From Candidatus Woesearchaeota archaeon (GTDB lineage: Archaea > Nanobdellota > Nanobdellia > Woesearchaeales > GW2011-AR4), in contig JACPMT010000040.1 of assembly GCA_016185815.1 (NCBI GenBank), positions 1-32,047 on the forward strand: 32,047 nt of DNA, read 5' to 3'. Each line of letters begins with the position of its first letter. Position 1 is the first letter of the stretch. Below the pieces are notes generated by a model. That model did no database searches. It was not told the origin of the DNA and saw only the letters and a list, made by a program, of their open reading frames with translations. Below are positions 2,437-25,698 of the stretch, one piece after another. The position numbers and the translations under genes are program-made.

Positions 2437-4362
2437 ATGCCAAAAATCAAGATAACATTGCCGGATGGGAGCGTAAAGGAATACCATAAAGGGATTACTG
2501 CAGGCGAAATTGCCTTTGGCATAGGCAAAAGGCTTGGGGAAGACGCATTAATTGCAAAAATAAACGGCAAGCTAAAAGATTTATTTGTTCCGATAAATGA
2601 AGATTCAACCCTGCAGATTATAACTTACAAAGACAAAGAAGGATTGGAGGCTTTCAGGCACAGCACAGCGCATTTGCTTGCCCATGCAGTTGTTGAGATG
2701 TTTCCAGATGCAAAGCCCACAATAGGGCCTGTTGTTGAAGAGGGCTTCTATTATGATTTTGGCATTGAGCACCATTTCGTTCCTGAAGACTTGGTCAAGA
2801 TAGAGCAGAGAATGCATGAAATTGTCAAAAAGGAATACAAAGTTGAGAGAATTGAGTTAAGCGAGGGCGAAGCAAAAAAACTTTTCAAAAATAACCCGTT
2901 TAAAATAGAGTTAATCCAGGAATTCCATGAGGAAAAACAGCCAATTAGCGCCTATAAACAAGGCGATTTTATCGACTTGTGCAGGGGCCCCCACATCCCA
3001 CACACCGGAAAAATAAAAGCGTTCAAGCTGACGAAAATCGCATCAGCTTACTGGAGAGGCGACCCAAAAAATCAGCAACTGCAGAGAATTTATGGGGTAA
3101 GCTTTTCTGAAAAAAGCATGCTTGATGCTCACTTAAAGCAGGTTGAAGAAGCAGAGAAAAGAGACCACAGGAAAATAGGCAAGGAGCTTGAATGGTTTAA
3201 TTTCTTTGAGGAAAGCCCTGGCTCGCCGTTTTTTTATCCAAAAGGGACAATAATCTACAACCTGCTGCTGGAATTCATCAGGAATGAATACAAAAAAAGA
3301 GGCTATCAGGAAGTTATAACTCCACTTCTTTATGAAAAATCCTTGTGGGTTACCTCAGGCCATTGGGAGCATTTCAAGGAAAGCATGTTTGTTTTGGAAT
3401 CAGAAGGAAAAGAGTTTGCCCTAAAGCCGATGAACTGCCCTTCGCATGTTTTGGTTTACAAGTCAAAATCAAGAAGCTACAAGGACTTGCCTTTGAGGAT
3501 TGCTGATTTTGCTCCTTTGCACAGGAATGAATTGTCTGGAGTTTTGGCTGGCTTGACAAGGGTAAGAAAAATGTCTCAGGATGATGCACACATTTTCATT
3601 GCCCCTGAGCAGATTGAAGAGGAGATTTTCAGAGTGCTTGATTTTACAAATTTCATTTACAGGGAAGTGTTTGATTTTGACTACAAGGTTGAATTAAGCA
3701 CGAAGCCGGAAAAGTTTATGGGCAATGCTGAAGGCTGGAGCAAGGCAGAGGAAGCACTGAAAAAAGCGCTTGAAAAAAAGAAAATTGCGTATGAAATCAA
3801 ATCCGGGGAAGGGGCTTTTTACGGGCCTAAAATTGACTTTCACATTAAAGACGCTTTGGGAAGGGACTGGCAGCTTGCCACCATACAGCTTGACTTCCAA
3901 TTGCCTGAAAGATTTGAAGCAACTTATGTCGGAGCGGACAATGCAAAGCACCCTGTTGTGATGATTCACCGGGCATTGTTCGGCTCAATTGAACGGTTCA
4001 TTGGAATTTTGGTTGAGCACTATGCAGGCAAGCTTCCATTGTGGCTGGCGCCTGTTCAGGTTAGAATCTTGACAGTTGCTGACAGGTTTGAAAAATATGC
4101 AAACAAAATAAATGAAGAGCTTGAAAAGCATAACGTTAGGGTTGAAGCAGACTCAAGAGCTGAAAGCGTTGGGTATAAAGTTAGGGAAGCGCAGCACCAG
4201 AAAATTCCATTGATTTTGACAGTAGGCGAAAAAGAAGAAAGCAAGGGCACGGTTGCAGTAAGGACGATTGATAATAAGGTTTATTTTGACGTTAAGGTTG
4301 ATGATTTATTAAGCAAAATTTTAAAAAATATTAAAGAGAAAAAGGTTAAGGTCGAGTTCTAA
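2437..4362 (+). CDS. thrS: Threonyl-tRNA synthetase
   Basis: TGS domain (MPKIKITLPDGSVKEY), editing-domain HxxxH (HSTAHLLAHAV), class II motifs (FRNE-like LHRNELSG, GAFYGPKIDF) and an anticodon-binding C-terminus. Start moved to ATG 2437; the TTG-initiated extension from 2347 is low complexity. Confidence 0.95.
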   Translation: MPKIKITLPDGSVKEYHKGITAGEIAFGIGKRLGEDALIAKINGKLKDLFVPINEDSTLQIITYKDKEGLEAFRHSTAHLLAHAVVEMFPDAKPTIGPVVEEGFYYDFGIEHHFVPEDLVKIEQRMHEIVKKEYKVERIELSEGEAKKLFKNNPFKIELIQEFHEEKQPISAYKQGDFIDLCRGPHIPHTGKIKAFKLTKIASAYWRGDPKNQQLQRIYGVSFSEKSMLDAHLKQVEEAEKRDHRKIGKELEWFNFFEESPGSPFFYPKGTIIYNLLLEFIRNEYKKRGYQEVITPLLYEKSLWVTSGHWEHFKESMFVLESEGKEFALKPMNCPSHVLVYKSKSRSYKDLPLRIADFAPLHRNELSGVLAGLTRVRKMSQDDAHIFIAPEQIEEEIFRVLDFTNFIYREVFDFDYKVELSTKPEKFMGNAEGWSKAEEALKKALEKKKIAYEIKSGEGAFYGPKIDFHIKDALGRDWQLATIQLDFQLPERFEATYVGADNAKHPVVMIHRALFGSIERFIGILVEHYAGKLPLWLAPVQVRILTVADRFEKYANKINEELEKHNVRVEADSRAESVGYKVREAQHQKIPLILTVGEKEESKGTVAVRTIDNKVYFDVKVDDLLSKILKNIKEKKVKVEF

Positions 4363-4368
4363 AATTTG

Positions 4369-5277
4369 TTATCTCTTTTTGCTGTCCCCTCTTCTTCTAA
4401 AGAACCTTACAGCAGCCCATAACACCAATGCTGCAACTGCGTATGGAAGTGCTGCAAAAATCAATTTAAGCAGATTGTTTATGCTTGTTACTAACCTTCT
4501 CACCAATTCTGAAAATTTCACAAACACTATGTTAGCGTACTGCGGCTGCTTTTCGCTTAATGTTACGTATATTGCTGAATAGTCAACACGCTGGTCGATG
4601 TTTTTCAGCGAATCTTCCAAGTACTTTATGGTTCTCTCCTGCTCGAATATTCTATCGCTCAGCTGTATTTTGTCTGCAGTCAAAGTCGCTTCCTCGTACA
4701 TTTTATTGTACCTCAAAAGCCTTTGCTTTTCAGCATTAATCTCAATCTCGAGGTTTTTGTAAGAGCCGGTGACATCCTCTGCATTTTCATTGAAGGACTT
4801 GACTTCGCCTATATTTTTTAATTGCGTTATTATGTCATTATATTTCCTGCTGTCAACCTTTAGCTGGTAAGCGCCGCTGTAATAGGATTTCCAGCCTGAG
4901 TCGTATTTGTTGACGTTTTCATTCAGGAGATAGGAGTTGGTTGCCCTTACTATTGACTTGAGCTTTGACTCTGCATCAGCAAATTGCCCTGTTTCAACTT
5001 CTGTTGAAAGGCTTGATGATCTGGTTATCTTGCGTTCTGCAACATCAGGCGCAAAATCGCCGTACACAGGCACAGGAGGTATGATTCCGCTGCTTCTGAA
5101 GTATGCAGCTTCCGAAACTGCCATTTCCCCGCCAATGCCTTTTGTAAGTGAGGGCACATTGGCTATACTTCCTATGCTACCTACATTCAAAAAGATAAGC
5201 ACGGCTAAGGATATAACAATAAGCAGCCAGTTTTCCTTCAACTTGTTTAATTGCTCTGTTATCGCCATTTTAATCAA
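4369..5277 (-). CDS. DUF4349-like membrane-anchored coiled-coil protein
   Basis: N- and C-terminal TM helices. The central region has the pattern ERKITRSSSLSTEVE..KNLEIEINAEKQRLLRY..RVDYSAIYVTL, typical of DUF4349 as I recall it. Confidence 0.55.
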   Translation of the reverse strand: MIKMAITEQLNKLKENWLLIVISLAVLIFLNVGSIGSIANVPSLTKGIGGEMAVSEAAYFRSSGIIPPVPVYGDFAPDVAERKITRSSSLSTEVETGQFADAESKLKSIVRATNSYLLNENVNKYDSGWKSYYSGAYQLKVDSRKYNDIITQLKNIGEVKSFNENAEDVTGSYKNLEIEINAEKQRLLRYNKMYEEATLTADKIQLSDRIFEQERTIKYLEDSLKNIDQRVDYSAIYVTLSEKQPQYANIVFVKFSELVRRLVTSINNLLKLIFAALPYAVAALVLWAAVRFFRRRGDSKKR

Positions 5278-5407: not shown

Positions 5408-6811
5408 ATGGTCCTCGAAAACCTCAGCAATGCATTGAAAAACACATTGCAAAAAATAGCAAAATCCCTTTTTGTAGATGAAAAGCTGATTAATGAATTA
5501 ATAAAGGACATCCAAAGGGCTTTATTGCAGGCAGATGTAAATGTAAAATTGGTTTTTGACCTGACGGAAAAAATAAAGCAAAGGGCATTGAATGAGGAAT
5601 CCCCAAAAGGGCTTACAAAAAAGGAGCAGATAATAAATATAGTGTATGAGGAATTGGTTAATTTTCTCGGCAAGGAGCAGCACAAAATAGAGCTAAATCA
5701 AAAGCCATTTAAGATAATGCTTGTCGGCTTGTTCGGCTCCGGAAAAACAACCACGGCAGGAAAGCTTGCAAAATTTTACACGAAAAGAGGCCACAAGGTT
5801 GCATTGGTCGGCTTGGATATTCATCGTCCTGCTGCAATGGAGCAGATTGAGCAGGTTGGAAGGCACGCAAACGTTACTGTGTTTTTAGACAAAACCCACG
5901 AAAATCAAAGATTTTCGGGGCCCAGAAAATTCGGTGAATTGTCTCGGGAAATAAAAGACCCGATAGAAATATGGAAAAAACACATTGACGACTATAAAAA
6001 TTTTGACATTTTGATAATAGACACTGCCGGAAGAGACGCGCTTTCCCACGATTTAATCAATGAAATTGAAGAAGTAAACGAAAAAATCCAGCCGAATGAA
6101 AATTTATTGATTATCTCTGCGGACATAGGGCAAGCTGCCCAAAAGCAGGCGGAGCAGTTCCACAAAAGCTGCGGCATAACTGGCATAGTTGTTTCAAAAA
6201 TGGACGGCACTGCAAAGGGCGGAGGGGCTTTGACAGCCTGCGCAGTTTCAGGCGCGCCAATCAAATTTATCGGAATCGGGGAAAAAATAGACGATTTGGA
6301 GCAGTTTAACCCTCAAGGCTTTGTCGGAAGAATTTTAGGCATGGGTGACTTGGAAGCATTGCTGGAAAAAGCAAAGGAAGTGATAAAAACAGAGGATGCA
6401 GAAGACCTTGGCAAGAGGTTTCTTAAAGGAGAATTCAATTTGATTGACTTGTACGAGCAGATGGAAGCAATGTCAAAAATGGGGCCTTTAAGCAGCATTG
6501 TTGAAATGATACCTGGGTTTTCTTCCTTAAAATTGCCCAAGGAAATGCTACAGGTCCAGGAGGGCAAGCTAAAGAAATGGAAAATTGCAATGAACTCCAT
6601 GACAAAGTCAGAGCTTGAAGAGCCCGACATAATCGACAGCCCGAGGGTTGAAAGAATTGCAAAAGGCTCTGGGATTCAAACAAGCGAGATTAGAGAATTG
6701 CTAAAACAATACAAGCAAAGCAAGAAAATGGTCAAGATGTTCAAGGGCAGCAAGGGAGACATTTCAAAAATGATGAAGAAGTTTGGCGGAAAACTGCCGA
6801 TGGGCGTATAG
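5408..6811 (+). CDS. srp54: Signal recognition particle protein SRP54
   Basis: N domain, then G domain with GLFGSGKTTTAGKLA, DTAGR and SKMDGTAKGG, then a Met-rich M domain. Ends at TAG 6809-6811. Confidence 0.95.
   Translation: MVLENLSNALKNTLQKIAKSLFVDEKLINELIKDIQRALLQADVNVKLVFDLTEKIKQRALNEESPKGLTKKEQIINIVYEELVNFLGKEQHKIELNQKPFKIMLVGLFGSGKTTTAGKLAKFYTKRGHKVALVGLDIHRPAAMEQIEQVGRHANVTVFLDKTHENQRFSGPRKFGELSREIKDPIEIWKKHIDDYKNFDILIIDTAGRDALSHDLINEIEEVNEKIQPNENLLIISADIGQAAQKQAEQFHKSCGITGIVVSKMDGTAKGGGALTACAVSGAPIKFIGIGEKIDDLEQFNPQGFVGRILGMGDLEALLEKAKEVIKTEDAEDLGKRFLKGEFNLIDLYEQMEAMSKMGPLSSIVEMIPGFSSLKLPKEMLQVQEGKLKKWKIAMNSMTKSELEEPDIIDSPRVERIAKGSGIQTSEIRELLKQYKQSKKMVKMFKGSKGDISKMMKKFGGKLPMGV
5893..5946 (+). 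other. 54-nt in-frame palindromic insert in srp54; candidate BHB intron
   Basis: Two tandem imperfect hairpins (5895-5920 and 5921-5948). AGAC 5887-5890 pairs with GUCU 5941-5944, with 3-nt bulges AAA and CGG. See findings. Confidence 0.3.
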
Positions 6812-6878
6812 ATTTTGCTGAAAGTTATCTTCAAGAAACTGAAGGATTGAGGATAAATCTTTTGAGGATTTGAATAAA

Positions 6879-7037
6879 ATGAAGAAAGTTTTGAAGTTAT
6901 TAAAAGAACACAAAGTAACAATAAGAAAAGCTGCTAAACTTGCAGATGTTTCTTATTTAGAAATGCTAGGTTTGGTCTCCAGACTAGATATATGTATAGG
7001 ATATTCTTTAAAAGAATTAAGAAAAGACACAAGATAA
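6879..7037 (+). CDS. UPF0175-like small protein (52 aa), possibly an orphan antitoxin
   Basis: MKKVLKLLKEHKVTIRKAAKLADVSYLEMLGLVSRLDICIGYSLKELRKDTR resembles the UPF0175 pattern (HTH-like ..AA.LAG.S..EF..LL...GI....S.EEL). Below the ORF-track size cut-off. Confidence 0.35.
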   Translation: MKKVLKLLKEHKVTIRKAAKLADVSYLEMLGLVSRLDICIGYSLKELRKDTR

Positions 7038-7059
7038 AACGATTTATAATATTAATTTT

Positions 7060-7725
7060 TCACTCCAAAAACCTAGGATTAAACTTGTCATACCATTCCC
7101 TTTTCTCGATCTCGTCAAGAATGTTTGAAAATCCAAAAGTCGAGGCACCACCATGGATTTCAATCTTTTTGTCAAAGCCGTTTTTCAGCGCGTAAAACGC
7201 GCATATCTTGAAGCCGGCAGAATTCTCGTTCATCATTTCAACAGGGTTGTAAATAATTTCAATCATTCTTTCGCTTCTGTTAAAAACAGCGGCAATCGTG
7301 CTTGTGCCAGTTTCAGGGTCGATATATGAAATGCAGATTTTATCCAGCAAAGAGTCGAGAAATCTGGCAAATTTGTCAATGTCGCTGGCATCAATTTGGT
7401 TGAAATTTGCCCTTCCGACTGACTTTAAGCCAGGAATTTTCGATGCTGTCTCGGCAAAGAATTCCTTTACATCCTTAACCTTGATGAAAACGCTTACTTT
7501 GAAATGCTCTATTGTCTTTTTTGTCTTGATTTTTATTCCTTTGTACTTTCTGTTGAACTGCTCTGCAAGTTTTTCGAATTTAGGAATTAAAGTATCCAAA
7601 TCATGCTGCGCCTCGCCGTAGTACCTGTCGATTTCAGCTCCTACCTTAATCATTTGAGTAAAGTCTTTTTTGAAATTATTGATATCACTGGAGCTGAATT
7701 CCGACAGAATGTCGTTGTTTACCAT
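7060..7725 (-). CDS. Hypothetical protein (221 aa)
   Basis: Clean ORF with ATG start and a divergent promoter region at 7726-7801. I recognise no motif. Confidence 0.5.
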   Translation of the reverse strand: MVNNDILSEFSSSDINNFKKDFTQMIKVGAEIDRYYGEAQHDLDTLIPKFEKLAEQFNRKYKGIKIKTKKTIEHFKVSVFIKVKDVKEFFAETASKIPGLKSVGRANFNQIDASDIDKFARFLDSLLDKICISYIDPETGTSTIAAVFNRSERMIEIIYNPVEMMNENSAGFKICAFYALKNGFDKKIEIHGGASTFGFSNILDEIEKREWYDKFNPRFLE

Positions 7726-8514: not shown

Positions 8515-10923
8515 ATGAAACTAATCGCGGACCTGCAGATTCATTCACGCTTTTCAAGAGCTACAAGCTCAAGCTTGAATCTCCCAAATCTTGAAAAATA
8601 TGCGAAGCTAAAGGGGCTTAATCTTCTCGGAACAGGCGACTTTACCCATCCAAAATGGCTTGCTGAATTAAAAAATGAATTAAAAGAAGATGGCTCCGGG
8701 ATTTTGGCATCAAAATCCGGATTTCATTTTGTCTTGCAGGGGGAAATATCCAACATTTACACACAGGATGGAAAAGGAAGAAGAATTCATAACTTATTAC
8801 TTGCAAGAAATTTTGAGGTTGTTGAGCAGATAAATTCCGCATTGCTGAAAAAAGGCAGGCTTGATTATGACGGCAGGCCCATTTTCGGCTTTTCATGCAT
8901 TGAGTTAGTGGAAATGATGAAGGAAATTGACGATGAAATTGAAATCATTCCGGCGCATTGTCTACTACCTGGAACCATTATTCATTCTAATCCTAAACTT
9001 ATGCCTATAGAACACTTAAAAAATGGTGATAAAGTTCTTACTCATAAAAGTAAATATAGAAAAGTAAAGGCTATTCATAATAGGCACTACAAGGGTGATA
9101 TTTACCATATAAAACCTAGGTATTTTAGTTTAGGCTTAAACACAACTGAAGAACATCCTTTTTTTGCTATAAAAACTTTAAAAGATTGTTCGTGGACAAG
9201 CGGAATATGTAAGCCTACATATCCCCATATCAAACGTTGTGTTACAAATGCATATCAAAAATATGAACCAAGATGGATTCAAGCTAAAAATCTAGAAGTA
9301 GGTGATGTTTTACTTTACCCAAGACTAACATCTACTAAAGATGTAAAATATGTAAAGATTGGTAATGATAATGTTAGAGTTGATGAAAAATTCTGTAGAT
9401 TAATTGGTTACTACTTGGCTGAAGGATACACCAATGGACGCGACTGCATAGGATTTAGCTTTAATAAGGAAGAGACTCAATTTTTAAATGACGTCAGATA
9501 TTTAATTTCAGAGGTATTAAAATATAAATCAAAAGAAGGAAAAACCTTTGGCGATATATTAGTATACTCGAATAGGATACGTTTATTCTTTGAGGAAAAC
9601 TTTTATTGTGATAATCAAAAGAGAGCAAGTTCAAAATCCATGCCTTATTGGATGTTGAAGCTACCACTGAAAAAACAAGTTGAAATCTTAAAGGGTTGGT
9701 GGTATGGTGACAGGGGTAGCACATCTTCAAGAACATTAATGAACCAATTTAAGATTATCTGTTTAAGGCTTGGAGTTGTACCATCTATAAGAGTGGATAC
9801 TAAAGATTCACATATATTACGTGGAAAACATATACTTAAAAATAGAATAATAACAGCACAAAGTGATAATTATATTTTAGATAGACTAACTTTCTTTGAG
9901 GATAAATTCAATTTATTAAAAAATGAATATTTTAGAATATGCAAGCCTAAAAAAGAAATGAAATATGGTTGGATTGATAACAAGTATGTATATCTTCCAA
10001 TATTTAAAATAATCAAAAAGCATTATGAAGGTTATGTTTATAATCTCGAAGTGGAAGAGGACAACTCCTATGTTGCAGAATTTGCTGCTATCCATAATTG
10101 CTGGACGCCTTGGTACGGAATTTTCGGCAGCATGTCAGGATTTGACAGTGTTGAGGAATGCTTTAAGGAAAAGTCAAAGCATATTTACGCAATTGAAACC
10201 GGCTTAAGCTCCGACCCTGCAATGAACTGGCGCCTTTCAAAGCTCGACAAATATACTTTGCTGAGCAGCTCTGACGCCCATTCATTCTGGCCATGGCGCC
10301 TGGGAAGGGAAGCAAATGTTTTTGACATGGATTGGAGCTACGATGATTTACTGCAAGCAATAAGGAAGAGAAAAGGATTTGTCGAGACAATTGAGATGTG
10401 GCCTCATGAAGGAAAATACCATTACACAGGGCACAGGAACTGCAATGTCTGTTTAAGCCCGAAAGAATCCATTGAATTAAAAAATATATGCCCAAAGTGC
10501 AGAACCCCCCTTACTGTTGGGGTTGCCCAAAGGGTTGAAATGCTTGCAGACAGGGAAGAGGGATTTGTCCCTGAAAATGCAGTTCCATTCAAGAATTTAA
10601 TACCTTTGTCCGAGGTTATTGCAGGCACAACAGGGCATGCAGTAAGCTCAAAGCAAGTTTGGGAAGAATATTACAAATTAATCAATGAATTTGGAAATGA
10701 ATTTAACATTTTGTTGGAAGCAGAAGAAACAAACTTGAAAAAAATAACTTCTGAGAAGATTGCAAATAACATTATAAAAAACAGAAACCAGAAAATTCCA
10801 TTCAAGCCGGGATATGACGGGGTTTATGGGGTGCCGATTTTTAATGATAAATACGCGATAAAAATTAAAGAACAAAATAATGAATTAAAAATCAAACAAA
10901 AAGGGCTGGACGAGTTTATGTAA
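8515..10923 (+). CDS. PHP-domain endonuclease-Q-like protein (TIGR00375-type) interrupted by an intein
   Basis: N-terminal PHP motif DLQIHSRFSRATS..GTGDFTHP. Extein junction IIPAH|CWTPW. C-terminal Cys cluster CNVC..CPKC. The extein is 422 aa after removing 380 aa. Confidence 0.7.
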   Translation: MKLIADLQIHSRFSRATSSSLNLPNLEKYAKLKGLNLLGTGDFTHPKWLAELKNELKEDGSGILASKSGFHFVLQGEISNIYTQDGKGRRIHNLLLARNFEVVEQINSALLKKGRLDYDGRPIFGFSCIELVEMMKEIDDEIEIIPAHCLLPGTIIHSNPKLMPIEHLKNGDKVLTHKSKYRKVKAIHNRHYKGDIYHIKPRYFSLGLNTTEEHPFFAIKTLKDCSWTSGICKPTYPHIKRCVTNAYQKYEPRWIQAKNLEVGDVLLYPRLTSTKDVKYVKIGNDNVRVDEKFCRLIGYYLAEGYTNGRDCIGFSFNKEETQFLNDVRYLISEVLKYKSKEGKTFGDILVYSNRIRLFFEENFYCDNQKRASSKSMPYWMLKLPLKKQVEILKGWWYGDRGSTSSRTLMNQFKIICLRLGVVPSIRVDTKDSHILRGKHILKNRIITAQSDNYILDRLTFFEDKFNLLKNEYFRICKPKKEMKYGWIDNKYVYLPIFKIIKKHYEGYVYNLEVEEDNSYVAEFAAIHNCWTPWYGIFGSMSGFDSVEECFKEKSKHIYAIETGLSSDPAMNWRLSKLDKYTLLSSSDAHSFWPWRLGREANVFDMDWSYDDLLQAIRKRKGFVETIEMWPHEGKYHYTGHRNCNVCLSPKESIELKNICPKCRTPLTVGVAQRVEMLADREEGFVPENAVPFKNLIPLSEVIAGTTGHAVSSKQVWEEYYKLINEFGNEFNILLEAEETNLKKITSEKIANNIIKNRNQKIPFKPGYDGVYGVPIFNDKYAIKIKEQNNELKIKQKGLDEFM
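8959..10098 (+). mobile_element. Intein (380 aa) with a LAGLIDADG homing-endonuclease domain
   Basis: Block A is CLLPGT (Cys1 at 8959) and block B is NTTEEHPFF. There are two LAGLIDADG motifs (LIGYYLAEGYTNG and ILKGWWYGDRGS). Blocks F/G are VYNLEVEEDNSYVAEFAAIHN, followed by the +1 Cys (10099). Confidence 0.85.
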
Positions 10924-15867: not shown

Positions 15868-16473
15868 CTAATTTCTAATCAAATCAACCAAATCCCTTAT
15901 TTTTATTATCTTCAAATTCCATCTTTTAGCCATTCTTTTCAGTTCAGGCATCTTTGCCATTTTCCCGTTTTCTCCAATAATCTCGCAGATTACGGCAGCT
16001 GGATAAAGCTTGGACAATTTGCATAGTTCAATTGCTGCTTCTGTATGTCCTGGTCTTTTTTTAAGTCCGTTAGTGTCGCGTCTTAATGGGAACACGTGCC
16101 CGGGCCTTGCCAAATCGCTTGGCTTTGTTTTTTTGTTTATCAACGCTTTGATTGTTTTTGCCCTGTCAAAAGCAGAGATGCCTGTTGTTGTGCCTTTTTT
16201 CGCATCAGCAGAAATTGTGAAGGCGCATTTTGTGAATTCTGTGTTTATCTTTGTCATTAATGGCAGCTTTAATTCATCAAGCCTTTTGCCAAGCATAGGA
16301 ATGCAAACTAATCCTCTGGCATTCCTTATCATGAAATTTATTTTTTCCGGAGAAACTTTTTCAGCAGCAAGAACTAAGTCAGCTTCGTTTTCGCGATGCC
16401 TGCCATCAACAACAATCACAAACTTTCCTTTTTTGAAGCCATTGATTGCATCTTTAACTTTGGAGAAAATCAT
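15868..16473 (-). CDS. ribB: 3,4-dihydroxy-2-butanone-4-phosphate synthase
   Basis: From ATG 16473: MIFSKVKDAINGFKKGKFVIVVDGRHRENEADLVLAAEKVSPEKINFMIRNARGLVC..RPGHVFPL..RPGHTEA. The 71-codon TTG-initiated extension in the track has no homology and overlaps structured RNA. Confidence 0.85.
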   Translation of the reverse strand: MIFSKVKDAINGFKKGKFVIVVDGRHRENEADLVLAAEKVSPEKINFMIRNARGLVCIPMLGKRLDELKLPLMTKINTEFTKCAFTISADAKKGTTTGISAFDRAKTIKALINKKTKPSDLARPGHVFPLRRDTNGLKKRPGHTEAAIELCKLSKLYPAAVICEIIGENGKMAKMPELKRMAKRWNLKIIKIRDLVDLIRN

Positions 16474-16805
16474 TTTATTGTGTTTTATTTTGTTGACGAA
16501 TATTTCAATCCGTCGCTTCGCGACAAAATTTACACTCGGCAAAAATTTTTCCTGCCAATAAATTTTTGCCTCGAATTTATTCAATAATATTGAATAAATT
16601 GGCGAGGTTTTGCGATGTGTCGATAAATCCTTTGGATTTTCGATCATGCTCAAAAATCTTTGATTTTTGACATGGCAGGACAGCAAAACCGAGCACTAAA
16701 ATTGCGAAGCGGATTGACAATTAAAAATAAGTTAAAACATATTCATTTTGCCGAAGGCGGATTGAACTTGTATTAAATGACTTAATGCTATGCGTTCCAA
16801 CATTG
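16474..16805 (-). promoter_or_regulatory. Unusually long (332 nt) structured spacer between ribD and ribB
   Basis: Contains a 27-nt perfect palindrome (16574-16600) extended by CCTCG/CGAGG. Carries three copies of the hairpin+GGATTGA motif (16502-16524 on the opposite strand, 16704-16718, 16750-16767). Confidence 0.35.
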
Positions 16806-19366: not shown

Positions 19367-19838
19367 TTCTTCTACTTTAATTGCTTTGGAAAGAGCTGGT
19401 TTAATTAAATTCATCGACAAAATTGGATATAATGTAATCATACCCAAAGCTGTCAAAGAAGAAATCAAGAATGAAAAAATTCTAAAGTTTTTAAAAATGC
19501 ATGAGCTAACGGGAAGAACTTTAAGGCTTAGCAAAAGTCTAGAACACTTGAATATTGGCAGTGGAGAGGCACAATGCTGCGCTTTGGCAAATAAACTGAA
19601 ATTAGATTTTATAATATGTGATGATAGAAAATTTATAAGGCAAAGATTTTTATCAGATAATAAACACTTGAAAAATATTAAGGTTCTGGGATTCTCATTT
19701 TTTCTTCATATTTTCTACAAAAAAAAATTAATAAAAAATACATGGGAATATTTTGATAAGATTATCAAATCGAATAATTGGGAAAGAAGCGAGGTATTGG
19801 TTGCTAATTATACTTTTCTCAAAAAGATTGGATACTAA
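19344..19838 (+). CDS. PIN-like (DUF3368/COG2405-type) nucleic-acid-binding protein; toxin candidate
   Basis: ILVVDSSTLIALERAGLI..IIPKAVKEE...GSGEAQCCALA..LDFIICDDRKF matches the PIN_3/DUF3368 pattern as I recall it. TTG start. Confidence 0.55.
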   Translation: MPKILVVDSSTLIALERAGLIKFIDKIGYNVIIPKAVKEEIKNEKILKFLKMHELTGRTLRLSKSLEHLNIGSGEAQCCALANKLKLDFIICDDRKFIRQRFLSDNKHLKNIKVLGFSFFLHIFYKKKLIKNTWEYFDKIIKSNNWERSEVLVANYTFLKKIGY

Positions 19839-21424
19839 TACTCCTCCCAACCCTTAATCTCCAAATCCTCCATCTTTTTCTTATAAATTGACTCAATAAA
19901 CAGCTTGGCAATCTGCTCATTTGTTAGCAATGGAATATTGAAATCAACTGCTTTTCTTCTGATTAAATAATCATTTGTTAGCTCTTCCTCTTCCAAGCTT
20001 TTTGGTATGTTAATCACTAAATCAATATTCCTTTCCTGAATGTAAGTCAACACATTTGGCTCTCTCTTGTCAAGGGGCCACCATAAAATTTCAGCATTTA
20101 CCCCATTCTGCTCCAAGAATTTTGCAGTGCCTTCTGTTGCATACAAATTAAATCCAATTTCTTCCAATTTTCTAACGCTTTCAAGCAAATAAGCTTTGCT
20201 TTTTATCGGTCCTGTTGAGAGCAAAACATTAGAATTTGGCATTACAAACCCAACTGAAAGCAATGATTTAAGAAAAGCTTCATTTATGTCATTACCCAAG
20301 CAAGCAACTTCCCCAGTTGATGCCATCTCAACGCTTAAAACAGGGTCAGCGCCGTGCAGCCTTGAGAATGAAAATTGCGGAGCCTTGACTCCAACATAAT
20401 CCAAGTCAAGGGTGTTGTACTTTCCTCTTATGTCAAGCCCAAGCATAGCCTTTGTCGCCATTTCAATGAAATTATATTTTGTGACTTTTGAGACAAAAGG
20501 AAAACTCCTTGAAGCCCTTAAATTGCACTCTATAACTTTTATTTGGTTGTCTTTTGCAATAAACTGAATGTTAAACGGACCTGTTATTTTCAACGCCTTT
20601 GCAATGTTTTTTGTTGTTTCCTTTATCTTCCTAATTGTTTCAAGATAAGTGTATTGGGGCGGCAATGCCATTGTCGCGTCGCCAGAATGCACTCCTGCAT
20701 TTTCTATGTGCTCCGATATTGCATAAATTACAACATCCCCATTTTGGGCAACTGCATCAATCTCAATTTCCTTTGCATTTGTTATGAACTTGCTTATGAC
20801 AACCGGGTGCTCTTTTGAGACATCCGCCGCTTTCTTGAGATATTGCTCAAGTTCTTTATTGCTGGAAGCGATGCTCATCGCAGCCCCGCTCAAAACATAA
20901 GAAGGACGTATCAAGATAGGGTATTCAACCTTTTCTGCAAACTTATGCGCCTCTTCAATAGATTTTGCTTCAGTCCATTCCGGCTGGTCCACATTTAAAG
21001 AGTCAAGCAGCGCAGAAAATTTATGGCGGTTCTCTGCATTGTCTATGCTTAAAGGGTTTGTCCCTAATATTTTTATATTCTGCCTGTGTAACTTCATTGC
21101 AAGGTTATTCGGAATCTGGCCGCCCATTGAAATTATAGTGCCAAGAGGATTCTCTTTTTCATAGATGTCAAGAACTCTCTCAAAGCTTAATTCATCGAAG
21201 TAAAGCCTGTCGCAGACATCATAGTCTGTGCTTACAGTTTCAGGATTATAATTAATCATAATTGTAGAATAACCAAGCTTATTTAAAGTAAAAACAGCAT
21301 TGACACAGCACCAGTCAAATTCAACAGAAGAGCCTATTCGGTAAGCGCCTGAGCCAAGAACAATTGCATTATTTTTGTTATCAAATTTTACATCATCCTC
21401 TTCCCCATTATAAGTTAAGTAAAG
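19835..21424 (-). CDS. carB: Carbamoyl-phosphate synthase large subunit, C-terminal half (second ATP-grasp + MGS-like domain); start unresolved
   Basis: The frame is open from 21424 and reads LYLTYNGEEDDVKFDNKNNAIVLGSGAYRIGSSVEFDWCCV..MINYNPETVSTDYD..IECNLRASRSFPFVSK.. The first canonical start is ATG 21259, which is downstream of the Gly-rich loop. Confidence 0.8.
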   Translation of the reverse strand, partial: LYLTYNGEEDDVKFDNKNNAIVLGSGAYRIGSSVEFDWCCVNAVFTLNKLGYSTIMINYNPETVSTDYDVCDRLYFDELSFERVLDIYEKENPLGTIISMGGQIPNNLAMKLHRQNIKILGTNPLSIDNAENRHKFSALLDSLNVDQPEWTEAKSIEEAHKFAEKVEYPILIRPSYVLSGAAMSIASSNKELEQYLKKAADVSKEHPVVISKFITNAKEIEIDAVAQNGDVVIYAISEHIENAGVHSGDATMALPPQYTYLETIRKIKETTKNIAKALKITGPFNIQFIAKDNQIKVIECNLRASRSFPFVSKVTKYNFIEMATKAMLGLDIRGKYNTLDLDYVGVKAPQFSFSRLHGADPVLSVEMASTGEVACLGNDINEAFLKSLLSVGFVMPNSNVLLSTGPIKSKAYLLESVRKLEEIGFNLYATEGTAKFLEQNGVNAEILWWPLDKREPNVLTYIQERNIDLVINIPKSLEEEELTNDYLIRRKAVDFNIPLLTNEQIAKLFIESIYKKKMEDLEIKGWEEY

Positions 21425-22689
21425 TTAATTAATTCAATTGGAATATTGTCAATATTAAATTTTAATAGCTCTTTCTCTGTCTCGACAACATTTTTTATTT
21501 TATATAGGAACCATTTATCGATTTTTGTCAGCTCATATATTTTATCAATGGGAATTTCCTTTTTGATTGCTTCAACAATAACAAGCAGTCTTTTGTCAGT
21601 TGGCTTTGTCAATTCTTTTTCAATAGTGTCAAATTTTAAATTATTTCCAACTAAGCCATGAAGGTTTATGTTGAGCATCCTTATTGCCTTTTGAACCACT
21701 TCCTCAAACTTTCTTCCTATAGCCATAACCTCGCCGACACTCTTCATCTCGCTGCCGATTTCAAAGCTCACTCTCTTGAATTTCTGCAAGTCCCATCTTG
21801 GCATTTTAACAACAATATAATCCAATGCAGGCTCAAAGCAGCTTTTTGTTGCCTTTGTTATCATGTTTTCAAGCTCTATTAAGGAATAGCCCAAAGCAAG
21901 CTTTGCTGCAATAAATGCTAAAGGATAACCAGTTGCCTTTGATGCAAGCGCAGAGCTTCTTGAAAGCCTTGCATTTACTTCAATAAGCCTGTAATCCTCG
22001 GAATTTGGGTCGAGGGCAAACTGTATATTGCATTCCCCGACAATTCCAAGGTGCCTTATGACTTTAATTGAAATGTCCCTTAACTTGTGGTATTCATTGT
22101 TTGTCAAAGTTTGAGATGGAGCAACGACAATGCTTTCTCCAGTATGAATTCCCATAGGGTCAAAGTTTTCCATGTTGCAGACTGTGATGCAGTTGTCATA
22201 AGCATCTCTTACAACTTCGTATTCAACTTCTTTCCAGCCGCCGAGGTATTTCTCAACAAGAACTTGGGAGGAATAGGCTAATGCCCTTTTTGCATTGTTT
22301 CTTAATTCTTCTTCATTTAAGGCAACGCCAGAGCCTTGTCCGCCTAAGGCATAAGCTACTCTAAGCATAACAGGATATTTTAATTTTTTAGCAACTTCTA
22401 CTGCTTGCTCCACCGTGTTAACAGCTTCGCTTTCAGGCACTTTGAGGCTTATTTTAGTTAATTTGTTTACAAACAATTCCCTGTCCTCTGTGTTCTTGAT
22501 TGCGTCAATCTGGGTGCCTAAAACTTTTATATTGTATTTTTCAAAAACATTATTATTGGATAATGCAACTCCGCAGTTTAAAGCCGTTTGCCCGCCAAAA
22601 GAAAGCATGATTCCGTCTGGATTTTCCTTTTCAATAACTTTTTCTACAAAGTAAGGGGTTACAGGAAGAAAATAAATCTTATCAGCCAT
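21415..22689 (-). CDS. carB: Carbamoyl-phosphate synthase large subunit, N-terminal ATP-grasp section (424 aa)
   Basis: MADKIYFLPVTP..GGQTALN..MLRVAYALGGQGSG..VEYEVVRD..IEVNARLSRSSALASKATGYPLA.. Ends inside the oligomerisation domain. Confidence 0.9.
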   Translation of the reverse strand: MADKIYFLPVTPYFVEKVIEKENPDGIMLSFGGQTALNCGVALSNNNVFEKYNIKVLGTQIDAIKNTEDRELFVNKLTKISLKVPESEAVNTVEQAVEVAKKLKYPVMLRVAYALGGQGSGVALNEEELRNNAKRALAYSSQVLVEKYLGGWKEVEYEVVRDAYDNCITVCNMENFDPMGIHTGESIVVAPSQTLTNNEYHKLRDISIKVIRHLGIVGECNIQFALDPNSEDYRLIEVNARLSRSSALASKATGYPLAFIAAKLALGYSLIELENMITKATKSCFEPALDYIVVKMPRWDLQKFKRVSFEIGSEMKSVGEVMAIGRKFEEVVQKAIRMLNINLHGLVGNNLKFDTIEKELTKPTDKRLLVIVEAIKKEIPIDKIYELTKIDKWFLYKIKNVVETEKELLKFNIDNIPIELINFT

Positions 22690-22695
22690 GCCCTA

Positions 22696-22874
22696 ACTTG
22701 TCTGGATTGTTGCAATGTTTGGATTTACGAGTACTGTTTCTATGCCTTCTTCGCGGAGGGCTTTGAGGCATTGGGAGCCGGAGTAGTCGAATTAGCGCCT
22801 TATAAGGTCTCGCCTGCTTCTCCGATTTTCAATGAACCCGAGCCCAGAACTAACACTTTTTTAGGCTTGTTCAA
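22696..22874 (-). CDS. carB: carB 5' segment (two exons split by a 17-nt element), terminated by an in-frame TAG
   Basis: SD GGAGGTGA (22883-22890), 8-nt spacer, then TTG 22874. Exon 1 reads [22 protein letters not shown] (to 22809). Exon 2 reads [32 protein letters not shown] (22791-22696). TAG follows at 22693-22695. Confidence 0.6.
22792..22808 (-). other. Candidate 17-nt BHB mini-intron in carB mRNA (ACCUUAUAAGGCGCUAA)
   Basis: A non-triplet insert lies exactly between E and F of the conserved EFDYSG motif. A 4-bp helix GGCG/CGCU is flanked by 3-nt bulges AGA and AAU and an inner palindrome CCUUAUAAGG. See findings. Confidence 0.55.
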
Positions 22875-24078
22875 TAGTGATTTCACCTCCGTTTAATTTC
22901 CATAAATATGATCTGTTAGAAGCGACTTTTCCTACTATGGCTACTAAACCCTTATTACTAAGGTGTTTAAGTTTCTTAAGAGCTTTAGTTTTAGATTTTC
23001 CTAAATCAGCAGCTATGTCAGCAGTGGAAGCACATCCTTTTTTTGATAAAAATTCTAAAATTTTGTTATTTAAAATTCTTTCATTTCCTTTGCTATAAAA
23101 TATTTTGCTATTAACTATCTTCTTTAATTTCTCAAATTTTTCCCCACTAGTTAACCCAATTTTATTATAAAAATTAATTAAACTCTGATAATCAGTGATA
23201 TTTATGTACATTACAATATGCAAACCATCTTCTTTTTTGTATTGTCTAGAAATTTTAGGTTTTCCAGAATATATATCCAATTCCTTAAGAATAAAACTTA
23301 TTTGTTCTAATAAGTTGTAAAGAGTTTCTTTTTGGTTTATATGCCTTATTACGTTCATATTTAAACCTTTTGCTCTATAATTATTGCTTAACATGACAGA
23401 ACCATCATCATCAAAAAAAGCTTTTAAGAAAGCAATTCTATATTTTTTAGATTTTAGTATCCATTCTGGAACTAAATTTTCACTATAAATCTTTGGCGCG
23501 ATAGGTGCTCCAAATACTTCCAAAATTTCTCCTGTAATTGCTGGATAGCCTATCCTATTTTGCTTTTCTGTATATGGTAAAATGCCAAATAATTCAGAAA
23601 TTTGAGTTTTAACTTCCTTTATCAAATTAGGATTATTATTGCTGTATTCAAACTGCCTTTTATTTCTACCTATATAACCATCACCAAAAACATGACCAAT
23701 TAACGAAGCGATTTTTTCGTCATGTCTAATGGGAAACTTAATATTCATACTTGTACCCGCACGAGTTCTAATTGACGTGATATTATTTTGTATTTCTTCA
23801 AGAGAAATCTTTGACAAGTTTGATAATTTTAATATAATATCTAATGGAATTGAATACATATTCTTCCTTAAATGAATCACAAAAGGGTATGAAATATCGA
23901 ATAATTTTGCTAATTCTTTTAATTCGATATTACAATTATCAAAAAGCTTTATAGTGAAGTCTTTATTAAGATTTAATCTAACATTGTCGGATAAATTCCA
24001 AAAATTTATTTGAAATTCTTTAATATTCTGTATCATTTTATAGCTAAAATCTTTATTTGATTTTTGTTTATTATTCAT
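22861..24078 (-). CDS. Free-standing double-motif LAGLIDADG protein with N-terminal HTH-like and C-terminal winged-helix domains
   Basis: LAGLIDADG motifs LIGHVFGDGYIG and FLKAFFDDDGSV. C-terminus LEFLSKKGCASTADIAADLGKSKTKALKKLKHLSNKGLV is wHTH-like. Start moved to ATG 24078 (MNNKQKS..); the longer tracked ORF overlaps the upstream gene. No Hint or intein splicing blocks. Confidence 0.7.
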   Translation of the reverse strand: MNNKQKSNKDFSYKMIQNIKEFQINFWNLSDNVRLNLNKDFTIKLFDNCNIELKELAKLFDISYPFVIHLRKNMYSIPLDIILKLSNLSKISLEEIQNNITSIRTRAGTSMNIKFPIRHDEKIASLIGHVFGDGYIGRNKRQFEYSNNNPNLIKEVKTQISELFGILPYTEKQNRIGYPAITGEILEVFGAPIAPKIYSENLVPEWILKSKKYRIAFLKAFFDDDGSVMLSNNYRAKGLNMNVIRHINQKETLYNLLEQISFILKELDIYSGKPKISRQYKKEDGLHIVMYINITDYQSLINFYNKIGLTSGEKFEKLKKIVNSKIFYSKGNERILNNKILEFLSKKGCASTADIAADLGKSKTKALKKLKHLSNKGLVAIVGKVASNRSYLWKLNGGEITIEQA

Positions 24079-24203
24079 AATATAATAACTTGATTTTGGA
24101 ATAATAAACCTTGAAAAATAAAAATAAGGTTTAAATGTATCCAGATGTAAAGTATTCTCCTTTAAATAGTATGCGTCAGCGGATGTCCGGTGTCCAGTGG
24201 TAT

Positions 24204-24521
24204 TTACCTGAGCCATTTTTTCTTAATTTTTCCTATTATTAATCCTATTAAAATTCCTAATAGAGTATAAAATATTGGGGACAAATAAACAGCAATGACC
24301 ACTATACCTTCTGGTGCTAAAGGATCGTTAGGTAAAGCATTTAAAATCCATAATATAGTTGCAAAAGATAAATAAGGCAACGCTATAAGAATAATTAGAA
24401 AAGGCGAATCGTAAAAAGGAGAGAAAGAAAAATAAAAAACTATTAAACCGAATATTAGTCCAATTACTCCACCTTTCTGCCAATATTTCAATTTACCCCA
24501 AAATTGTTTTGTTTTCCTCAT
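24204..24521 (-). CDS. Small membrane protein (105 aa, about 3 TM)
   Basis: ATGA start/stop overlap with carA (24518-24521) suggests translational coupling. Hydrophobic helices throughout. Confidence 0.5.
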   Translation of the reverse strand: MRKTKQFWGKLKYWQKGGVIGLIFGLIVFYFSFSPFYDSPFLIILIALPYLSFATILWILNALPNDPLAPEGIVVIAVYLSPIFYTLLGILIGLIIGKIKKKWLR

Positions 24522-25628: not shown

Positions 25629-25640
25629 GGTTTCGAAACC
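25629..25640. promoter_or_regulatory. 12-bp perfect palindrome GGTTTCGAAACC abutting the carA TATA box; candidate operator
   Basis: Lies just upstream (in the BRE position) of the minus-strand TATA TTTATTAA, which is ~26 nt before carA ATG 25594. Overlaps a second dyad, AAACC..GGTTT. Confidence 0.3.
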
Positions 25641-25698
25641 GAAGGTTTTGGAACTTAGAAAATTCAGAAATTTTCTTTAGTTGCGGTCTTAATTTTTT

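Follow-up and report, generated by a model that had tools for sequence, protein, structure and literature searches.

The DNA analyzed here, a 32,047-nt contig (JACPMT010000040.1) from a Candidatus Woesearchaeota archaeon and referred to as the window, contains a gene for SRP54 in which a 54-nt double-hairpin element, designated type A, lies in frame. The element, its target and related features of the window are listed in Table 1.

Table 1. Positions of the SRP54 gene, the double-hairpin element and related features of the window.
Feature	Position	Strand	Basis or remark
SRP54 gene, host of the insert	5408..6811	+	467 aa; ORF list, PDB and Pfam matches
BHB-like motif of the initial annotation	5883..5951	+	geometry present; judged fortuitous
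AAAA, left half of the A-run target	5891..5894	+	directly 5' of the SRP54 element
Type-A double-hairpin element, 54 nt, in frame in SRP54	5895..5948	+	exact 54-nt gap versus ortholog DNA; 77.7 bits against covariance model R1 (own copy included in the model)
Hairpin 1, CCC-A-CGAAAATC / AAA / GATTTTCG-GGG	5895..5920	+	pairing probability 0.98-1.0
Hairpin 2, CCCAGAAAATTC / GGT / GAATTGTCT-C-GGG	5921..5948	+	covariance model, fold, family covariation
AAA, right half of the target	5949..5951	+	directly 3' of the SRP54 element
Diverged double-hairpin relative, hairpin-rich spacer upstream of ribB	16619..16674	-	R1 26.5 bits, E = 1.4e-4
Diverged double-hairpin relative, between carA and a GNAT gene	25632..25680	+	R1 28.9 bits, E = 3.8e-5

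The SRP54 gene and its insert

The deduced SRP54 protein contained the N, G and M domains (Pfam SRP54_N, SRP54 and SRP_SPB) and matched SRP54 entries of the PDB with E = 1e-127; an exact look-up of the protein gave no record. The extra peptide, THENQRFSGPRKFGELSR, occupies codons 163-180, most of which are encoded by the element. The strings and coordinates of the initial annotation were all found to be correct, and its description of a lineage-specific insert of exactly 18 residues was confirmed by comparison with homologs. The insert was absent from the other 119 SRP54 relatives among the matches listed, 16 of which were aligned as protein and four contigs as DNA, and the full-length relatives listed were 447-456 aa, mostly 449 aa, the length expected of the window protein (467 aa) less 18 residues. 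Exactly these 18 residues were missing in 16 of the 16 relatives aligned as protein, and the SRP54 homologs of the PDB showed a gap at the same place in the alignment.

Comparison with ortholog DNA placed the boundaries of the insert at 5895-5948, coinciding exactly with the two hairpins and differing from the 5893-5946 that follows from the BHB cutting rule. The orthologs read unbroken through the target as GAYAAAA^AAATAAAAGAC, and the same comparison revealed no target-site duplication. In an AF2 model of the protein (mean pLDDT 63.5) residues 163-182 formed a coil with pLDDT < 50, situated between strand 157-159 and helix 185-191. The insert would most likely be translated into a disordered loop.

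The insert was also located in X1 and X2, two groundwater source metagenomes that were checked as Logan unitigs. Both junctions were present with zero mismatches in independent unitigs of X1 and X2, the left junction in a unitig covering 5840-5921 (depth 49 in X1 and 36 in X2) and the right junction in a unitig starting at 5892 (depth 54 in X1 and 44 in X2). Since both junctions were recovered in two runs at a depth equal to that of the unique flank, the results indicate that the insert is not an assembly artifact. Words of hairpin 1 occurred at ~20 times the flank depth in the source samples (~1017 in X1 versus 49 at the left flank), marking this hairpin as the part with the highest copy number, and 36 unitigs of X1 matched the element, many running on into unrelated flanks. 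Unitigs matched in depth suggest that the genome to which the window belongs may contain further copies.

A multi-copy family of double hairpins

Hairpin 1 of the SRP54 element is composed of 11 bp with a bulged A, and hairpin 2 of 11 bp with one A.G mismatch (5927/5941) and a bulged C. Both are GC-clamped with A/U-rich stems, and the ends of the element consist only of CCC...GGG. The 96-nt region around the insert had a folding z of -2.5. The E value of the SRP54 element against R1 was about 1e-16, the model having been built from nine type-A copies with that of the window included by construction.

Other copies of the unit were abundant. Exact-pattern scans identified seven loci in GTDB, chiefly in genomes of Woesearchaeota, and 91 in JGI metagenomes; the covariance model added copies on many contigs. 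One contig contained two copies. Together with the unitigs of the source metagenomes, these results establish that the SRP54 insert is a member of a multi-copy double-hairpin family, most copies of which are intergenic. The assembly holding one of the GTDB loci also encodes an SRP54 ortholog without the insert. A scan of viral contigs returned zero copies. No second copy of hairpin 1 was found in the window at <=3 mismatches, and the covariance model was necessary to detect the two diverged relatives of Table 1. For the relative upstream of ribB, the DHBP_synthase match of the ORF at 15868-16686 starts at residue 79.

The stem sequence of hairpin 1 was identical in all copies retrieved with patterns that themselves required that stem; departures from it were seen only in weaker matches to the covariance model, which were found independently of the patterns. 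Hairpin 2 varied and covaried across the family. In the family alignment 91.9% of cells paired versus 81.5% in shuffles, slid controls gave 35-67%, and double-sided changes were present at 23 of 23 pairs. This covariation was read from a model-based alignment, which replaced one made with MAFFT from 46 copies in which hairpin 2 was wrongly aligned. The double-hairpin module occupies a fixed position in a larger noncoding unit of 180-350 nt, which is rich in hairpins, conserved and present in many genomes. Rfam contained no family matching either the element or this unit at gathering and E-value thresholds; in the case of the unit, the presence of the module inside it may be the reason.

These findings bear on the simplest explanations of the insert, namely an ordinary lineage-specific expansion or local duplication in the SRP54 loop, or a chimeric assembly. 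SRP54 homologs do vary somewhat in length at this loop. However, near-identical 54-nt units were present at about 100 other loci, also inside other genes, and the source reads contained the same sequence with many other flanks, which refutes a loop expansion, while a chimera is refuted by the independent unitigs spanning both junctions in the two runs.

Copies in other genes and the intron reading

In-frame 54-nt copies were identified in genes encoding enolase, an XPD-like helicase, an RFC-like ATPase, an H+-PPase, an LspA-like protein and one unknown protein, the copy in enolase corresponding to an 18-aa gap versus human enolase. The in-gene copies were read in two different frames, AAAA or AAA preceded every type-A copy, and the orientation was that of the host gene in 7 of 7 independent in-gene copies. 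The consensus element is free of stop codons in all three forward frames and therefore leaves the host gene open; with only one reverse frame open, part of the bias toward the host orientation is to be expected.

The XPD genes were particularly informative. Those of L008 and L010, which belong to non-sister lineages and are 77% identical, carry copies of the element identical at 53 of 54 positions in the same codon, the copies being 98% identical where the flanks are only 75-77% identical (p about 2e-5). The XPD genes of L103 and L105, 89% identical to that of L008, lack the element and show no footprint at the empty sites, and comparison with the empty sites showed no target duplication. The presence of the element at the same codon in non-sister lineages, combined with empty sites in closer relatives, indicates precise insertion or excision. 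This conservation of the element, far above that of neutral coding sequence, combined with the stem covariation, indicates selection on the nucleotide structure or its very recent spread.

In an alternative reading the double hairpin itself is functional, as RNA or as DNA, for example as a protein-binding site, a signal for RNA processing or stability, a terminator or a means of non-BHB removal from the transcript, and in-gene copies would be kept for that function rather than merely tolerated. A purely passive translated loop would fail to explain the conservation and the stem covariation of the element. The near-identity of the XPD copies inside diverged genes is consistent with an own function, as are the uniform hairpin-1 stem (with the qualification that the patterns required it), the strong covariation of hairpin 2, the fixed place of the module in the noncoding unit and the common orientation of the in-gene copies. 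Nevertheless, among the matches listed the element was present in 1 of 120 SRP54 and 2 of 120 XPD homologs, a sporadic occurrence, and a gene-specific function is made less likely by the lack of relationship among the host genes. Furthermore, the conservation equally fits recent insertion from conserved master copies, and the orientation bias is in part a consequence of the open frames. Retention for an own function is on balance unlikely.

The initial annotation had favored a BHB intron, in which the tRNA-splicing endonuclease would cut out 5893-5946 and a ligase would join the exons to give a mature SRP54 without the 18 residues. Archaea have BHB introns in tRNA and rRNA and, among mRNAs, in a small number of cases that include cbf5. 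The SRP54 element resembles them in being a short insert in an archaeal gene and in that a 4-bp helix flanked by two 3-nt bulges and, beyond these, two further helices can be drawn for it. The described geometry is literally present. AGAC (5887-5890) pairs with GUCU (5941-5944) to form a 4-bp central helix between opposite-strand 3-nt bulges, AAA (5891-5893) and CGG (5945-5947), the outer helix UUUU/GAAA has 4 bp including one G.U pair, and removal of the 54 nt is in frame, yielding ..FLDKEIKDP... A motif of such quality at the fixed 54-nt spacing occurred at 9 of 31,968 window positions, and with nearby registers and lengths allowed the probability of a chance occurrence is by our estimate roughly p = 0.01-0.02. 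The high nucleotide conservation of the family would also suit a role at the RNA level.

This geometry was not the favored fold of the transcript. The BHB fold had a free energy of -14.1 kcal/mol and the best BHB-constrained fold -16.4 kcal/mol versus -21.5 kcal/mol for the two hairpins, a disadvantage given as 6-8 kcal/mol, and the outer and central helices had pairing probabilities of <=0.001 and 0.02, respectively. The inner helix is only 1 bp, and the motif conforms to a relaxed form but not to the strict hBHBh' form. The central helix relies on GAC from the host codons for the conserved DK and on the G at 5941, a private T>G change that is the source of the A.G mismatch in hairpin 2. A comparable in-register BHB was present in none of the seven other in-gene copies, and a single chance motif among eight copies examined is unsurprising. 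The boundaries obtained by alignment restore the AAA (K) of the nearest ortholog; with the BHB cut the residue is E. In addition, the element is stop-free and in frame, properties for which an intron has no need. The window contains no tRNA genes, so that it offers no local BHB intron for comparison. In L025 a Woesearchaeota EndA gene adjoins a copy of the element. A search for RNA-seq runs containing the SRP54 locus returned none. Taken together, the results render a BHB intron very unlikely. Several copies share another, intrinsic BHB in which AAAA pairs with UUUU between the bulges CCC and CUC and 48 nt would be removed; it was rejected, its outer helix being mostly 2 bp with 6 extra bases left behind. 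The other reading in the initial annotation, an in-frame palindromic insertion similar to the Rickettsia palindromic elements (RPEs), is supported by the multi-copy family and its in-frame occurrence in other housekeeping genes.

The hairpin pair could also signal non-BHB removal from the transcript or ribosome skipping, making the element a new, miniature kind of mobile intervening sequence of archaeal protein genes that would home to the same codon in different lineages, as in XPD, a proposal to which we assign very little probability. Translational bypass was rejected, as landing at 5949-5951 meets TAA directly.

Proposed mobility and relation to known elements

The SRP54 insert is probably a copy of a mobile double-hairpin repeat, selfish and RPE-like, that is translated as a tolerated loop. 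According to this explanation, an element of Woesearchaeota-like DPANN archaea would have landed in the A-run of SRP54 (AAAA^AAA) with no target duplication, at the G-domain loop that connects a beta-strand to the helix following it. The 54-nt stop-free unit would have kept the reading frame open and would be translated as an 18-residue hydrophilic surface loop rich in Gly, Pro, Arg and Lys that the protein presumably tolerates. The element would then behave as selfish DNA with precise insertion and possibly precise excision, perhaps by a hairpin-recognizing single-strand mechanism of the HUH/REP type.

The last suggestion is based on resemblance. IS200/IS605 transposition is a single-strand 'peel and paste' process, and the element shares with IS200/IS605 and REP/BIME-RAYT systems imperfect hairpins with conserved bulges located at the ends, the lack of target-site duplication, precise presence or absence and insertion beside a short conserved target, here AAAA. 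It differs in that the hairpins are at the very ends rather than subterminal and in that copies also lie in genes, whereas REPs are essentially extragenic. A further difference is that no cognate HUH/Y1 gene was linked to the element. A motif screen of 1,701 ORFs (about 650 kb) revealed one IS200 tnpA (L056 11105-11545), identified as Y1_Tnp by Pfam with E = 5e-32, and it was rejected as the mobilizing enzyme on the basis of end hairpins unrelated to the element. No transposase with the same end hairpins was found in the 1,701 ORFs, no transposase was present among the 20 ORFs scanned in the window, and clustering of neighboring genes revealed no recurrent partner gene near the copies. The combination of terminal inverted repeats and target-site duplication that classically defines a MITE was found at neither the SRP54 nor the XPD sites.

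The RPEs (Ogata et al. 2000), as outlined in PMC2229807 and PMC10969869, are 105-150 bp long with one long stem-loop and terminal inverted repeats and lie between genes, in RNA genes or as in-frame fusions within conserved protein genes that are unrelated to one another; translation has been demonstrated for one RPE host, gmk. Like RPEs, the element described here is a multi-copy, hairpin-forming palindrome that is found between genes and in frame within unrelated conserved genes, preserves the ORF and is absent from orthologs. It differs in having 54 nt and two tandem short hairpins and in belonging to a DPANN archaeon rather than an alphaproteobacterium. On this comparison the element is treated as a putative analogue of the RPEs and not as a member, being set apart by size and architecture.

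To our knowledge, most known coding palindromes that are in frame come from Rickettsia and Wolbachia, and a single older report describes them in a methanogen. The latter concerns archaeal palindromic repeats that can likewise lie inside coding sequence, which we take to differ from the DPANN element in size and sequence and which come from a different lineage. The DHEs are similar in that they are very short units of two adjacent stem-loops with spacer locations and a mobility deduced from presence or absence among relatives; structured RNA genes, and now and then coding regions, contain them as well. Unlike the element, which resides in a cellular archaeal genome and whose A/U-rich stems are closed by G/C clamps, DHEs are organellar and rich in G+C. 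The byp elements of Magnusiomyces mitochondria, reportedly the subject of work by Lang et al. in 2014, are said to be untranslated and to need matching take-off and landing codons. They too are tens of nucleotides of mobile hairpin-forming DNA interrupting protein genes, although the copies described here are in frame and stop-free.

DPANN archaea have tiny genomes with much unexplained sequence. The results add to the known coding palindromes a far smaller one, of 54 nt and two hairpins, that is spreading through these archaea and is found within core genes encoding SRP54, enolase, XPD, an RFC-like ATPase and an H+-PPase. Such inserts cause de Bruijn assemblies to fragment at essential genes and add spurious loops to protein families. 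If the hairpins were to leave at the RNA level, they would represent a new class of archaeal intervening sequence. That non-sister lineages carry the element in one and the same codon, with no footprint, points to a precise, hitherto undescribed mechanism of mobilization.

The SRP54 insert and its assignment

The window has a G+C content of 37.7%, and its best protein matches carry names of Woesearchaeota or Nanoarchaeota (DPANN archaea). The strings and coordinates by which the initial annotation described two tandem hairpins within the SRP54 gene (table) were all correct. The 18 residues they encode are lineage-specific, as had been anticipated, being absent from all 119 other SRP54 relatives listed. 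Among those 119, the nearest were 84-87% identical to the query (at most 90% with the insert disregarded), and full-length proteins were 447-456 aa, the majority 449 aa, equal to 467 minus 18. A 17-sequence alignment revealed a clean gap of exactly these 18 residues between DK and (K/N/E)IKDP, and SRP54 structures showed the identical gap at the insert site. At ~80% identity, ortholog DNA from four contigs had GAYAAAA^AAATAAAAGAC, or nearly so, at this point. Deletion of 5895-5948, precisely both hairpins, gave GACAAAAAAATAAAAGAC, encoding the DKKIKD that the nearest ortholog has here and leaving no target duplication by comparison with the ortholog DNA. The cut proposed initially, 5893-5946, indeed stays in frame (..FLDKEIKDP..) and has the correct length of 54 nt; its boundaries yield DKEIKD, a plausibly acceptable product, versus the ortholog-matching DKKIKD obtained with 5895-5948.

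The locus was present in four groundwater metagenome runs, all from one study, and in no RNA run. In X1 and X2, DNA runs from the source aquifer, both insert junctions were spanned with zero mismatches by independent Logan unitigs (left, 5840-5921; right, 5892 to past 5957), and the X1 junction depths of 49 and 54 agreed with the unique flank depth of 57. The insert is not an artefact. No insert-less allele of this SRP54 was found at ≥97% identity among unitigs of the source runs; the same samples also contained insert-less SRP54 genes of other species at ~85% identity. An AlphaFold model from a shallow alignment (mean pLDDT 63.5) placed residues 163-182 in a coil of pLDDT <50 that links strand 157-159 to helix 185-191. 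This low-confidence coil is compatible with, rather than proof of, the structural tolerance that modelling was proposed to assess, and fits a tolerated surface loop.

The initial annotation interpreted the insert as a bulge-helix-bulge (BHB) intron, and the sequence contains each part it named: AGAC/GUCU, the UUUU/GAAA outer helix (4 bp) and both 3-nt bulges, along with an inner helix of 1 bp. A motif of like quality at the fixed 54-nt spacing occurred at 9 of 31,968 window positions, and the probability of chance occurrence was estimated at ~0.01-0.02 with nearby registers and lengths allowed for. Since this probability is not negligible, three predictions of the intron interpretation were tested. 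Folding of 5876-5958 gave -21.5 kcal/mol for the two-hairpin structure (MFE -22.3), compared with -14.1 for the proposed BHB and -16.4 kcal/mol for the best fold constrained to BHB helices; pairing probability was ≤0.001 in the outer BHB helix and 0.02 in the central one. A BHB in comparable register was found in none of seven other in-gene copies. The AGAC comes from the host and includes the codon for D in the conserved DK, and GUCU owes its G to a private T>G change, the source of the sole mismatch in the window's hairpin 2. One BHB-like coincidence among eight examined copies is unremarkable. The disfavoured fold, the unconserved motif and its fortuitous parts leave the intron interpretation unsupported and very unlikely.

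A dispersed family of double hairpins

The element is a repeat. In X1, word depth rose from 49 in the left flank to ~1017 over 5901-5921, 36 unitigs matched the 72-nt stretch, strain-identical unitigs ended exactly at the element edges, and many matching unitigs continued into unrelated sequence on either side. The segment 5892-5925 was common to other contexts at ≥97% identity and depths of 43-60, near that of this genome. The search for further copies recommended initially found them in GTDB genomes, JGI metagenomes and source-sample unitigs; exact-pattern scans returned seven GTDB loci, chiefly from Woesearchaeota, and 91 JGI loci. The copy at locus L010 shares its assembly with an insert-less SRP54 ortholog (L001). 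A covariance model trained on nine 54-nt copies scored the window copy at 77.7 bits, detected two diverged relatives in window spacers (table), and returned 222 matches in ~650 kb of fetched loci (both strands counted), many contigs containing several. Four or five A/T-rich hairpins follow one another in the spacer upstream of ribB (16500-16700), and one pair among them scores as the diverged copy; a Methanobacterium MAG contig contains similar arrays (L011, 500-600 and 4815-4990).

The model alignment takes in both strands and was itself fitted to the model, such that its pairing counts lean towards structure; 91.9% of its cells paired versus 81.5% in shuffles and 35-67% in slid controls, with double-sided changes in 23 of 23 pairs. 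In the raw listing of copies, the stem sequences of hairpin 2 were quite different, yet always paired. Two sub-families were distinguished. Type A reads AAAA, then CCC(A/T)CGAAAATC-nnn-GATTTTCGGGG, then CCCAGAAAAnnC-nnn-GnnTTTTCT(C/T/A)GGG, and is a sharply bounded 54-nt unit (26 + 28 nt) even between genes, with the exception of one 53-nt intergenic copy (L045). Type B, reading ..TTTCCG, hairpin 1, GGGGCCC, hairpin 2, TTGGTTAGGA.., is commoner and nearly always intergenic.

Larger units were also observed. Four different contexts (L027 and L087 on the same 76-kb contig, L088, L102) share an identical ~100-nt unit, TGAGGCAAAAATCCTCAGA + double hairpin + GGTTTTCAT; it contains a CAT, a possible opposite-strand ATG start codon, and may provide or abut gene 5' ends. 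A hairpin-rich conserved noncoding unit of 180-350 nt (table) contains a type-B module at a fixed position and had no Rfam match. It reads 5' AUCAAAAAAACAAGGGGC-ACCACACC-UUAAAA-GGUGYGGU.. to ..GCAGUAAGCUUACGAC..GACAUAA 3', lies 3' of a tRNA (L050, L082) or between rpS11 and rpoD (L064, L068), and in some genomes has additional single hairpins inserted into the first loop. Possible identities are an ncRNA not yet described or a mobile unit of larger size. The L050 unit is bracketed by a 17-nt direct repeat, ATATAGATTTTTATAAT (4300-4316, 4592-4608), which would be a promoter that was duplicated or else a long duplication of the target. A type-B copy (L025, ~4883-4935) directly upstream of a gene read by eye as a candidate tRNA-splicing endonuclease (EndA) is taken as coincidence.

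Locations of the element, its relatives and its in-gene copies. Numerical positions refer to the window unless a fetched locus (L number) is named.
Feature	Location	Strand	Detail
SRP54, 467 aa	5408-6811	+	ORF; N, G and M domains
Hairpin 1	5895-5920		CCCACGAAAATC-AAA-GATTTTCGGGG
Hairpin 2	5921-5948		CCCAGAAAATTC-GGT-GAATTGTCTCGGG
Diverged double-hairpin relative	16619-16674	-	Spacer upstream of ribB; covariance model
Diverged double-hairpin relative	25632-25680		In spacer; covariance model
Copy in enolase	L096		Peptide THENQRFSGPRKSEGFSR
Copy in LspA-like protein	L085		Reading frame as in enolase copy
Copy in H+-pyrophosphatase	L007		Peptide PTKIKDFRGPKNPKDFLG
Copies in XPD/Rad3-like helicase	L008, L010		Peptide PTKIKDFRGPENSKNFLG
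Copy in RFC-large-like ATPase	L009		Peptide PTKIKDFRGPGNAKHFRG, immediately before Walker A motif
Copy in unknown protein	L098		Peptide PTKIEDFRGPENPKDFLG
Conserved noncoding unit	L050 4313-4590; L064 8579-8841; also L022, L039, L070, L097, L014, L095, L078, L089		

In-frame copies and recurrence at one XPD site

Type-A copies sit within other long ORFs, each 54 nt, oriented as the host gene and preceded by AAAA or AAA. An in-frame palindromic insertion element, offered initially as the alternative to an intron, is the reading supported by this multi-copy double hairpin. The enolase insert corresponds to a gap of exactly 18 aa relative to human enolase. Two reading frames are used across hosts; the canonical unit lacks stop codons in every forward frame and in one of the three reverse frames. 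Conservation of the element far exceeds that of its host genes. Since differences between copies keep base pairing but alter amino acids, it is the nucleic acid rather than the peptide that is constrained.

The element peptide was present in 2 of 120 listed XPD homologs (P0121 from L008, P0124 from L010) and in 1 of 120 listed SRP54 proteins. In L008 and L010, from non-sister lineages with 77% DNA identity, the element occupies the identical codon with 53 of 54 bases the same. L103 and L105, 88.6-88.9% identical to L008, have empty sites reading ..AAAC^CTTATGATG and ..AAAA^ATTATGATG. This pattern of filled sites with clean empty sites in closer relatives (L103, L104 and L105 compared) resembles homing or precise excision. 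The adjoining 60-nt flanks are only 67% and 78% identical, indicating that there is no co-converted tract, and given this divergence at most one difference in 54 bases has p ~2e-5. The economical reading is that conserved master copies gave two precise insertions, each independent of the other, with repeated precise excision the alternative; under both, the event is base-exact.

Toxin-antitoxin-like genes (MazE/PemK and PIN-domain) adjoin SRP54 or XPD in several relatives, at L001 (7319-7928) and in the flanks of L003/L004 and L103/L105, a sign that small accessory genes turn over rapidly around core genes that are conserved. Elsewhere in the window (19835-24216, minus strand), the carbamoyl-phosphate synthase large subunit is encoded by two ORFs (19835-21259 and 21415-22689) downstream of a 451-aa LAGLIDADG-domain ORF (22861-24216), suggesting a split or intein-interrupted carB. 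An 802-aa ORF (8515-10923, plus strand) matched just one Pfam family, an intein splicing domain, and fell short of the curated cutoff (32.4 vs 35.8 bits).

Possible mobility and relation to known elements

This 54-nt double hairpin exists in multiple copies with conserved hairpins, enters A-runs without target duplication, shows exact presence or absence when close relatives are compared, and persists in frame inside essential genes, where it would be translated as a loop. Its mobility may be of the hairpin-recognising, single-strand kind known for REP/RAYT or IS200/IS605. No cognate mobilising enzyme was encoded among the 20 window ORFs scanned, no partner gene recurred among neighbours of the copies, and the viral contigs scanned contained zero copies. 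The single IS200-family tnpA found, in L056 (11105-11545), was rejected as the cognate enzyme, its end hairpins being unrelated (CCCCGTGCTCTTGGCACGGGG). The same contig has a dense hairpin cluster with seven weak-to-strong model matches in ~1.6 kb (5795-7357).

Rickettsia palindromic elements (RPE) are found between genes, as in-frame fusions in conserved protein genes, and also inside RNA genes (PMC2229807, PMC10969869); for a methanogen precedent, PMC2229807 cites Suyama et al. 2005. The behaviour of the element agrees with that of RPE. It differs from all the systems compared in size, two-hairpin architecture, lack of TIR and TSD, A-run target and host. The element is outside the RPE, MITE and BHB-intron families, and we file it as a new variant among the 'coding palindromes'.
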